A DNA stretch of 49,529 nt from Bernardetia sp. (GTDB lineage: Bacteria > Bacteroidota > Bacteroidia > Cytophagales > Bernardetiaceae): contig NZ_JAHDIG010000005.1 in assembly GCF_020630935.1 (NCBI RefSeq), positions 64,001-113,529 of the forward strand. The letters run 5' to 3'. The translations under genes and the position numbers were made by a program. Shown in pieces: positions 3,288-43,591 of this stretch. Each line of letters starts with the position of its first letter. The first letter of the stretch is position 1. Under the pieces are notes generated by a model. It saw only the letters and a list, made by a program, of their open reading frames with translations. It had not been told where the DNA came from and made no database searches.

Positions 3288-3437
3288 TCATCTAAAAAAT
3301 ATAGATGAATTGGTCTAGAATACTAACCATGAAACAAAAATTATTGGTGTCGCAATGTTAAGACAACAACGAAGGATATTTCTTTCCTAATTTTTGGCTC
3401 ACAGAATAGTAAATGTATATTAACATCTAGTATTCTA
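3288..3437. repeat. Structured intergenic element, copy 1: 7-bp hairpin (3288-3308) followed by a 10-bp terminal stem TAGAATACTA/TAGTATTCTA (3316-3325 / 3428-3437) enclosing a conserved core (TTGGTGTCGC..ATG.TAA.ACA.CAACGAA....CTCACAGAA.AGTAAAT)
   Basis: The core is about 75% identical to a second copy at 15083-15158. The terminal stems differ in sequence between copies but keep their pairing (covariation). Confidence 0.55.
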
Positions 3438-5199: not shown

Positions 5200-5207
5200 A
5201 GCTTTTC

Positions 5208-5282
5208 AGTTTACAGTAAACAGTTATCAGTTACCAGTGCTAATTTTCTTGTTTACTGGTAACTGATAACTGCTAACTGATT
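5208..5282. repeat. Heptamer-repeat hairpin: (CAGTNNN)x5 at 5208-5242, 12-nt spacer, inverted (ACTGNTA)x4 at 5255-5282; contains a perfect 18-bp inverted repeat CAGTTATCAGTTACCAGT/ACTGGTAACTGATAACTG
   Basis: Read directly from the sequence. It lies between the aroE start and the tal stop, overlaps the tal stop codon, and probably serves as the tal terminator structure. Confidence 0.7.
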
Positions 5283-5938
5283 TACAGGTTTAATGATTTT
5301 GCATCTTCTAAGAATTTTGCAAGTCCTTTGTCTGTAAGTGGATGGTCTAAAAGACTCATAATTACATTGGCAGGACAAGTAACTACATCAGCACCTACTT
5401 CTGCACATTGCAAAAGGTGCATATTATGACGAATAGAAGCAGCTAAAATTTCTGTTTGGAAACCATAATTTCCAAAAATATCTACCATTTGTTCTATAAG
5501 TTCCATTCCATCTGCTCCTACATCATCTAGGCGACCAATGAAAGGAGAAACATACGTTGCACCTGCTTTGGCTGCCAAAATTGCTTGCCCAGCAGAAAAA
5601 ATAAGTGTACAGTTAGTACGAATGCCTTTTTCTGAAAAATATTTGATAGCACGAATGCCATCTTTTATCATCGGAACTTTCACAACAATTTTATTATCAA
5701 TTTCAGCAAGTTCTTCGCCTTCTCTGATAATATCTTTGTATTCTGTACTGATAACTTCTGCACTTACATTGTCATCTACAATATCACAGATGGCTTTGTA
5801 GTGGCTGAAAATAGCATTTTTACCAGTAATTCCTACTTTTGCCATAAGTGATGGGTTAGTAGTTACTCCATCTAAAACTCCTAATTCTTGACATTCTTTT
5901 ATTTCTTCAAGGTTGGCTGTATCTACGAAAAATTTCAT
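5282..5938 (-). CDS. tal: Transaldolase / fructose-6-phosphate aldolase family (short Tal-FSA type)
   Basis: 218 aa starting [15 protein letters not shown] with ..GVTTNPSL.., as in short transaldolases. Confidence 0.8.
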
Positions 5939-15007: not shown

Positions 15008-15171
15008 TTTATCCATAGAGCAGTTTCAAGAAACTATTCTATGGATAAAATAATATAGAGTGCTGGACATGAGATAAAAAATTGTTGGTGTCGCTATGCT
15101 AAAACACCAACGAATGGTACTTTTTCCCTGTTCTGTGACTCACAGAACAGTAAATATCTATGGATGTCCAG
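15008..15171. repeat. Structured intergenic element, copy 2: 12-bp hairpin (15008-15049), terminal stem CTGGACAT/ATGTCCAG (15063-15070 / 15164-15171), conserved core 15083-15158 including a 7-bp stem TTGGTGT/ACACCAA and a perfect 23-bp palindrome CTGTTCTGTGACTCACAGAACAG (15128-15150)
   Basis: Homologous to 3316-3437, as detailed in the findings. Confidence 0.55.
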
Positions 15172-15215
15172 TACTCTAAAAATAATATTTTCTAGTTAAA
15201 TTTTTTATATAAAAT

Positions 15216-42852: not shown

Positions 42853-42986
42853 GTGTAGTTAGGGTTTATTGGTTAGTAAAAAAAATGATATTTTTTTATG
42901 CAATCGTAAAGATAGTATTTTTTGATATTTATTCCGATTTCTGGGTGTATGACAAATTTTCCTGTTTATAAAACATTCAATATTTC

Positions 42987-43205
42987 GTTGCTCTGCAACT
43001 CTACTTTTTTCTGTACTTTGTTTTATTCTACCAACAGAACGTTGCTCTGCAACTTGTGTTGTAGTAAGGGTAGAAACGCCAGCTACTTTAAGCAGAAAGC
43101 TAATAAAAAAGTGTTTTTTGTAAAAAAAAGCATAGAAAAAGTTGCAGCGCAACCTCATATTTGTAGAATGGATTATCATAATTTCTTTGGGAGTTGCAGC
43201 GCAAC
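42987..43205. promoter_or_regulatory. Cluster of four 15-bp palindromic sites, consensus CGTTGCKCTGCAACT (core GTTGC-N3-GCAAC): 42987-42999 and 43041-43053 forward, 43141-43153 and 43193-43205 reverse; spacing 54/100/52 bp
   Basis: Read directly. The sites lie in the 740-bp divergent icd/acyl-CoA dehydrogenase intergenic region. Confidence 0.5.
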
Positions 43206-43591
43206 GAAATGTAAAGGATATTTTTTTGCTATACAACAAAAAGAGATTTTTGTCGTACACCCCCAATTTCTTACTGCTTCAAAACCATCCCACTTTCAAC
43301 TGACCTAAAGTCATTGCAATGATTTTTAAAAATATCATTTGATTCTATCAAAAAAATAATTTCTACCTAGTTTTTATTTGCTTAGAAAGAAGGCTGACAA
43401 AATTAATTCATAATTTTTTAAAAAAATATCGATTTTTTTCCAACATTATTCGTCGTGCATACGTTTATTTTACTAAATTTGTCAGAATGGTATGCAAGCA
43501 TACAAAAAAATATTTCCAATAATAACTAACTATTTGAAATACAGTTAGTTGTGGTAAGAAAATCAAATCAAAACATCTAAATAAAAAATAT

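Follow-up and report, generated by a model that had tools for sequence, protein, structure and literature searches.

Two intergenic segments of about 122 bp in a Bernardetia sp. genome are best explained as ageing, diverged copies of a non-autonomous fold-back palindromic DNA repeat with a repetitive extragenic palindromic (REP) core, and not as a conserved RNA gene, a reading to which we assign a probability of roughly 0.78. Both lie within the 49,529-nt stretch that we analysed (NZ_JAHDIG010000005.1, positions 64,001 to 113,529; hereafter the window, to which all coordinates given without a locus label refer). A previous sequence-only reading of this DNA had described a two-copy structured element and preferred a structured RNA over a transposed repeat. 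That preference is not borne out: the copies are missing at syntenic loci, a close copy occupies a non-syntenic position in another genome, and the core is a dispersed REP hairpin that also flanks genes resembling those of REP-associated tyrosine transposases (RAYTs). We file copies 1 and 2 as a palindromic repeat because consensus scans gave no conserved promoter or terminator, because synteny is lacking and orientation is random, and because truncated and chimeric copies exist.

Architecture of the two window copies

Each copy consists of an outer stem enclosing two hairpins, the first of REP type (P2) and the second termed P3. The REP-type hairpins measure 36–37 nt, inside the range of about 21–65 nt for REPs, with stems of 8–13 bp, and the parts are as follows.

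3316–3437, plus strand (orientation of the earlier reading; the REP sense is minus): copy 1 of the composite palindromic element of about 122 bp, the more decayed copy
3316–3325, plus strand: outer 5' arm of copy 1, TAGAATACTA, the perfect complement of 3428–3437
3341–3376, plus strand: REP-type hairpin of copy 1, TTATTGGTGTC-GCAATGTTAA-GACAACAACGAAGG, a pattern match whose stem has one mismatch and whose loop has diverged
3387–3409, plus strand: second hairpin (P3) of copy 1, degraded, with two mismatches, one U-G and one compensated pair relative to copy 2 (from alignment and inspection)
3428–3437, plus strand: outer 3' arm of copy 1, TAGTATTCTA, forming a perfect 10-bp terminal inverted repeat (TIR) with the 5' arm
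15056–15178, plus strand: copy 2 of the composite element, well preserved
15056–15070, plus strand: outer 5' arm of copy 2, TAGAGTGCTGGACAT, part of a 15-bp TIR
15081–15117, plus strand: REP-type hairpin of copy 2, stem GTTGGTGT/ACACCAAC (15084–15091 / 15104–15111), loop CGCTATGCTAAA
15128–15150, plus strand: second hairpin (P3) of copy 2, a perfect palindrome CTGTTCTGTG-ACT-CACAGAACAG, identical in locus L002
15164–15178, plus strand: outer 3' arm of copy 2, ATGTCCAGTACTCTA, with one G-T against the 5' arm

The two copies match at 89 of 123 aligned columns (74% of ungapped columns), and their homology spans the whole element, exceeding the 75-nt core from which they had first been recognized. 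The core identity, then put at roughly 75%, is 76% by alignment, and a profile of both copies searched with nhmmer against the window recovers only these two (E = 4.7e-35 for copy 1 and 1.4e-39 for copy 2), both of them intergenic as described. Neither nhmmer nor two degenerate-pattern scans found a third copy in the window, the scans being expected to match 0.00 and 0.11 times in shuffled sequence. Outside the element the sequences surrounding the two copies are unrelated.

The earlier description of perfect inverted repeats that differ between the copies survives in part. The TIR of copy 1 is indeed perfect, while that of copy 2 is longer than had been stated and contains the G-T. Differences between the arms are compensated as described, but the arms are homologous position by position and not unrelated: of the 10 shared pairs, two differ in both partners (A-T to G-C) and one in a single partner (A-T to G-T). 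What stands of that picture is a structured, as yet unnamed repeat whose ends pair and whose differences are compensatory, and the title of that account had itself allowed for a miniature element.

Folding of the plus strand gave −26.4 kcal/mol for copy 1 (z −3.2 against shuffles) and −48.5 kcal/mol for copy 2 (z −6.8), and the minus strand folds about equally well (z −3.2 and −6.95 respectively). Read on the minus strand, the REP-type hairpin has the foot (C)TGCCGTT, the stem GTTGGTGT/ACACCAAC and the loop TTTAGCGNAGCG, so that the conserved GG(C)AG is the hairpin foot in the REP sense.

A search of Rfam at gathering thresholds returned only the three tRNAs of the window, with nothing credible for either copy at E<=10. 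The element had no match in a phage collection or in two scans of viral contigs, and a literature search with the hairpin sequence gave none. We rejected a small open reading frame (ORF) or leader peptide: the 10-codon ORF of copy 1 is frameshifted in copy 2, no ORF is conserved, and the hairpin loop always includes TAA. One Ignavibacteria variant does read HHHHMH...LLVSLR*, yet the variable loop sites are the three apical nucleotides and not codon third positions. An integron attC site was also rejected, as the R'/R'' consensus does not fit, judging from the sequence.

A dispersed hairpin that matches a published REP

What is conserved beyond the window is the inner hairpin, a unit of roughly 38 nt (TTGTTGGTGT-CGCTNCGCTAAA-ACACCAACAANGG) whose outer flanks are unrelated; plasmid searches match Bernardetia replicons through P2 only. 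A P2 pattern matched 66 times, in 56 of the sequences searched (51 metagenome loci, five other loci and the window). Removal of duplicates left 50 matches, two of which (L011 and L031, with a different loop) are chance, giving about 48 distinct copies of the same hairpin as that of copy 2. As the pattern used to collect the metagenome loci fixes most of the stem, stem invariance in that set is partly by construction; independent support for the stem comes from covariance-model matches and from a published Runella REP described below.

These copies are essentially all intergenic, occur in Bernardetia plasmids and in metagenomes, and stand in either orientation relative to the flanking genes (++ 10, +- 6, -+ 9, -- 13), with no recurrent neighbouring gene among the 50. 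Over 40 copies, 92% of cells are paired. The pair at the stem base takes all four Watson-Crick forms (GC 13, UA 8, CG 4, AU 3), and loop variation is confined to three apical nucleotides, which a 2-bp GC/GC mini-stem closes. Truncated or chimeric copies were found at L002, L015 and L035. Around solo hairpins we detected no convincing hidden inverted repeats outside two composite families.

We built a covariance model, R1, on the P2-pattern hairpin copies. In the window only copies 1 and 2 rise above noise (two matches in 49.5 kb), copy 1 scoring 40.3 bits (E 5e-9, over 3333–3381) and copy 2 scoring 58.2 bits (E 1e-14, over 15074–15122). In 200 kb of Bernardetia replicon the model found eight matches, all intergenic, seven of which are short- or variant-loop forms; loops of these variants are mostly GGGA, and their stems are compensated (GTCGGTG/CACCGAC, GTTTGTG/CACAAAC).

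The hairpin is also the REP found beside RAYT-like genes. Metagenome contig L061 encodes a 171-aa HUH/Y protein (ORF 773–1286) with the HUH motif MPNHIHL and C-terminal tyrosines, which matches the NCBIfam REP-associated tyrosine transposase profile at E 5.6e-19 over positions 10–145 of 146. The hairpin lies within about 50 nt on both sides of this gene, in inverted arrangement (687–735, minus; 1343–1391, plus; 66–67 bits). A second RAYT-like protein, in L033 (ORF 260–766), is 40% identical to that of L061, and its gene is flanked by short-loop variants of the hairpin, three of them upstream and a single one downstream, likewise inverted. In L061, 99 nt of the RAYT-like gene (residues 57–89) recur immediately beyond the right-hand REP, at 1392–1490, which points to an assembly fold-back or else to a second fragment of the gene that a REP interrupts.

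Subclass 2.6 TnpA-REP systems are mostly from Bacteroidetes and carry atypical REPs without GTAG (PMC6006769). Table S1 of Quentin et al. 2018 (PMC6006769) lists for the subclass 2.6 protein AEI49282.1 of Runella slithyformis the REP TGATGCCGTTGTTGGTGTTATCACCAACAACC, which has the same foot (GCCG) and the same 10-bp stem GTTGTTGGTG/CACCAACAAC as the family hairpin. Our hairpin likewise lacks the canonical guide tetranucleotide GT[AG]G at its foot, canonical relatives carrying GCCG(TT) as published for this subclass. The likeness to the Runella REPtron extends to extragenic, multi-copy occurrence and to inverted flanking of a RAYT-like gene in L061 and L033. The window copies differ from it in their structured 12-nt loop (C-GC-NNN-GC-TAAA, compared with 4 nt), in an altered foot, in the second hairpin within an inverted-repeat-bounded unit of about 122 bp, and in having no RAYT in the window. 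Resemblance to the CGTC-tagged REP superfamily (PMC3733652) is limited to TGTC/CGTC at the foot of some short variants; we rejected membership on account of stem length, the AT-first rule and the CCA tail.

Other palindromes accompany other RAYT-like genes. We considered the RAYT-like tnpA at L008 3960–4430 and the RAYT homologues of Bernardetia plasmids as cognate enzymes and rejected them, since different palindromes flank them. At 42980–43210 the window holds four small palindromes, (A)GTTGC(T/A)(C/G)(T/C)GCAAC, two with TTTGTAGAA adjoining, and that RAYT-like tnpA of Bernardetia sp. Wsw4-3y2 (Pfam Y1_Tnp) is flanked by the same palindrome; the cluster adds a second REP family, one with the canonical GTAG tag, to the window. 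Further recurring palindromes of Wsw4-3y2, CACGCTTCTGAGGAAGCGTG and GTTCAGTTCCTCAGAACTGAAC (L067 2300–2410 and 3010–3120; L007 44340–44380), flank another RAYT-like gene, and one abuts a short-loop family hairpin, giving mosaic spacers like those of bacterial interspersed mosaic elements (BIMEs). Beside family hairpin copies at L005 (about 2920–2940) and L010 (about 10380), ACAGGGTT(TT/AA)AACCCTGT recurs.

Presence, absence and composite relatives

MurQ of the window is 84–87% identical to that of Bernardetia spp. and the gene order is that of B. litoralis; the source is therefore a Bernardetia-like Cytophagales. Copy 1 lies between a gene for a large secreted protein of type IX secretion system (T9SS) type (minus, start 3133) and murQ (3632, plus), and copy 2 is bordered by the gene for an S-adenosylmethionine-dependent methyltransferase (minus, start 14931) on one side and, on the other, by an endonuclease/exonuclease/phosphatase-family gene (minus) whose 3' end faces it.

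A Logan contig (L004) matching the window at 99.7% identity carries copy 1 unchanged. In B. litoralis DSM 6794 the synteny T9SS protein-murQ-aroE-tal-fur is retained, and the spacer of 391 nt there contains neither the copy 1 element nor any model match. The contig of a sister species (L062; methyltransferase 89% identical) likewise keeps the nuclease-methyltransferase synteny, with a spacer of 86 nt compared with 284 nt in the window, and the copy 2 element is absent from it. A Cytophagales metagenome-assembled genome (L002) gave the sole exact-pattern match among 185,579 species genomes; here the element (5284–5395) is 86.5% identical to copy 2, lacks the 5' arm and lies between hslU and floA. 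Absence at syntenic loci together with a close copy at a non-syntenic one marks an element that is gained and lost rather than a gene. Empty-site alignment did not place the insertion point, the spacers of the relatives being too diverged.

At L016 (about 4000) a solo REP hairpin sits 7 nt past a permease-type gene; a homologue of the window T9SS protein (57% identical) has its 3' end 204 nt from the hairpin. The matching convergent junction of B. litoralis is only 40 nt long, and L016 looks like another case of presence and absence.

Relatives of the composite element carry the hairpin inside units with other ends. Three loci, from Bernardetia and metagenomes, hold units of 136–150 bp:

L005 2972–3107: miniature inverted-repeat transposable element (MITE) with IS5-type TIRs, carrying the REP hairpin; direct repeat AAA
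L006 15351–15500: MITE of the same kind; direct repeat AGA
L021 2063–2202: MITE of the same kind; direct repeat ATA

All three are bounded by the 18-bp inverted repeat GAAGTTGTTTAAGAATAG and by the 3-bp direct repeats given, and the same inverted repeat bounds an IS5-family insertion sequence (IS) at L007 13833–14771 with the target duplication ATG. The shared IS5-type TIRs and 3-bp duplications therefore identify these units as MITEs carrying a REP. The window family and these MITEs have a common internal module (P2, a short linker, TTTTTCC and a palindrome) with different ends. In the IS5-type units the palindrome accompanying the hairpin is 44 nt long (L005 3037–3080, L006 15424–15467, and L021); it is perfect in every copy, and the copies differ at 3–7 positions per half, all mirrored. 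Such mirrored differences are not expected of drift after insertion and suggest fold-back copying or homogenization of the arms.

The differing TIRs of copies 1 and 2 had been taken to speak against a freshly transposed MITE. That step fails: compensated ends fit a mobile element too, and the sister family combines IS5-type TIRs with target duplications. Compensatory end changes do not separate an RNA from a mobile element: both transposon ends have to suit one protein, and in REP hairpins selection acts on folding as single-stranded DNA. The compensated ends would then reflect a need for both ends or arms to match, imposed by one protein or by DNA fold-back, and not an RNA function. Copies elsewhere largely behave as a transposed repeat does, the outcome that the earlier reading had itself named as one that would refute it.

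Bacterial MITEs such as Correia/CREE of Neisseria, Nezha and ERIC (PMC3733652) resemble the window element in length (100–150 bp), absence of an ORF, TIRs, intergenic position, strong fold-back and TA at both ends, and for the sister family the likeness extends to 3-bp target duplications and to a matching autonomous partner of the IS5 family. The window family differs in having no known autonomous partner and no duplication distinguishable from its palindromic ends.

In Ignavibacteria metagenome contigs (L014, L023, L025, L030 and L057) the hairpin instead forms inverted dimers of about 125 nt, in which a long-loop form with the inner stem GTTAGC/GCTAAC is followed by a 30-nt spacer and a short form, at densities of up to one per 1.5–2 kb. 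Of seven scored copies, six are placed between genes transcribed away from each other, whereas REPs usually favour the 3' ends of genes. The window element recalls the REPINs and BIMEs of Pseudomonas and E. coli, composite palindromic units of REPs that fold into larger hairpins, and the relatives in L014, L025 and L057 are true inverted hairpin dimers of this kind; it differs from them in combining one REP hairpin with an unrelated second hairpin and unrelated outer arms, and in a tag that is not GTAG.

One further relative is interrupted. At L008 45389–46790 (Bernardetia sp. Wsw4-3y2, NZ_CP147018.1, about 95.4–96.8 kb) an IS110-family element splits a REP hairpin exactly between ACACCAAC and AACGGC, and the 5' non-coding end of this IS110 repeats 11 nt of the top strand of the left target, AACACCAACAA (within AACACCAACAAG). 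This segment is placed as the left target guide of a bridge RNA would be, a function that we infer from the sequence. Both the precise interruption and the 11-nt repeat parallel the REP-targeting IS110 elements IS621 and ISPpu9/10 (PMC11208160), a likeness that concerns the L008 hairpin and not the window copies, the bridge RNA again being putative. We rejected a general association of the hairpin with IS110: it is seen at a single locus, and there the IS110 is an insertion into the hairpin.

From these observations we propose that a RAYT would recognize the hairpin as folded single-stranded DNA, cut beside its foot and rejoin the ends, and that this cutting and rejoining would spread solo hairpins and inverted dimers. 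The hairpin would also ride within miniature elements that are bounded by TIRs and mobilized in trans by DDE transposases, as is shown for the IS5-type sister family by its TIRs and 3-bp target duplications. For the window family, whose ends read TA-GAGTGCTGGACAT..., we lean modestly towards a TIR-recognizing transposase moving the whole 122-bp unit over a RAYT. The decay of copy 1 and the altered foot of both copies suggest ageing, possibly immobile relics.

Tentatively, and with the odds rather against it, the pieces could be joined into one scheme in which a subclass 2.6 REP hairpin spreads both by its own HUH transposase and by hitch-hiking in MITEs of unrelated DDE transposases, with companion palindromes kept complementary by fold-back copying. 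Hitch-hiking is seen for the IS5-type ends and possibly applies to a putative TA-duplicating family in the window. If true, this chimeric REP-in-MITE route would explain why stem identity crosses classes (Runella, Bernardetia-like genomes and Ignavibacteria), unlike that of ordinary, species-specific REPs.

Counter-evidence, competing explanations and significance

Several observations weigh against a mobile palindromic repeat. The composite unit of about 122 bp is known from three copies only, two in the window and one in L002, so that high copy number is seen for the hairpin core and not for the unit as a whole. No autonomous partner with the end TAGAGTGCTGGACAT was found in the 0.8 Mb searched, which yielded only a solo arm (L009 16728). 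Both copies have TA on either flank, which could equally be a duplicated TA or belong to the palindrome, and no unambiguous target-site duplication. On the REP-sense strand the foot is altered in both copies (CCATTC and CCTTC, the canonical form being GCCGTT). There is no RAYT gene in the window, and the RAYT homologues of Bernardetia plasmids have other palindromes at their flanks; the L061 protein, at 68.5 bits, falls below the curated NCBIfam cut-off of 80 and matches Pfam Y1_Tnp and PDB entries (ISDra2 TnpA structures) only weakly. Finally, the wobble pairs in the outer stem of copy 2, in P3 of copy 1 and at the hairpin base (U-G) fit the plus strand only, as an RNA reading also predicts; the REP literature notes frequent G-T pairs.

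Among the alternatives, a cis-acting RNA element (a leader, attenuator or 3' stabilizer) regulating the adjacent gene is improbable, although it draws on a shared arrangement: on the minus strand, element, hairpin and gene follow one another at both loci, leading to the T9SS gene and the methyltransferase gene. REPs elsewhere are, moreover, reported to stabilize mRNA or terminate transcription (PMC3733652, PMC6006769). The intervening hairpins are as follows.

3288–3308, no strand assigned: small hairpin upstream of copy 1, 7-bp stem and 7-nt loop; outside the repeat and not homologous to the palindrome at 15008–15049
15008–15049, no strand assigned: imperfect palindrome upstream of copy 2, 20-nt arms, 90% complementary by repeat search; not part of the repeat

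They had been described as unrelated, perfect hairpins; unrelated to one another they are, but the arms of the second fall short of full complementarity. Neither has a T tract. The two downstream genes are functionally unrelated, the element is missing upstream of their orthologues, no neighbour recurs among the 50 hairpin copies, and in L002 a reading on the minus strand leads into the hslU 3' end. For the unrelated downstream genes and the failure of the arrangement in L002 we rejected a minus-strand riboswitch or leader. Under the palindromic-repeat reading it is possible that, in read-through transcripts, an RNA hairpin would act on neighbours such as murQ and the methyltransferase gene as a stabilizer or terminator, as described for REPs. 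Elsewhere in the window, a long imperfect palindrome (5203–5279; 25-nt arms, 92% complementary) lies in the shikimate dehydrogenase/transaldolase spacer.

A small structured RNA family, comprising a trans-acting small RNA or RNA-level module of about 120 nt from the plus strand with its outer stem and two hairpins under selection for RNA folding, has very little probability left. Strong predicted folds speak for it, as do the compensatory and G-U changes of the outer stem and P3 that fit the plus strand, the four Watson-Crick pair types at the hairpin base, the GNRA-like loops of most short-loop relatives on the sense strand of the model (GGGA, GCAA, GAGA), and the fact that no Rfam family claims the element. 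Yet folding is as good on the minus strand, the direction of the copies with respect to transcription is random, and the element is not kept at the syntenic loci of the sister species or B. litoralis. Sequence beyond the element is unrelated between copies, and no promoter or terminator is conserved: consensus scans of both loci gave no excess of sigma-70-type promoters, in a scan that does not cover Bacteroidota promoters, and no terminators. The truncated and chimeric copies (L002, L015, L035) and a core hairpin that flanks transposase genes and equals a published REP tell against an RNA family as well.

Least probable by our estimate is a double-stranded DNA site for a host protein (a nucleoid-associated protein, gyrase or a recombinase) kept by selection and not spread by transposition: the unusual conservation of the stem across Runella, Bernardetia-like genomes and Ignavibacteria and the binding of gyrase, IHF and Pol I by E. 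coli REPs (PMC6006769) speak for it, but it leaves unexplained the presence and absence at syntenic sites, the RAYT-flanking arrangement and the TIRs and target duplications of the sister family, and is compatible with a secondary role only.

Reading copies 1 and 2 as a palindromic DNA repeat removes a false small-RNA candidate and allows two loci to be annotated concretely. The range of a REP type previously listed for one Runella REPtron is extended to Bernardetia-like genomes and Ignavibacteria, and the REP hairpin is found embedded in miniature transposons with unrelated ends. The IS110 hit with its matching guide-like segment would add a natural target-guide pair outside Proteobacteria. 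Current understanding is not overturned; the use of these findings lies in the annotation of Bacteroidota repeats and in a small case study of the interplay of REPs, MITEs and IS110 elements.

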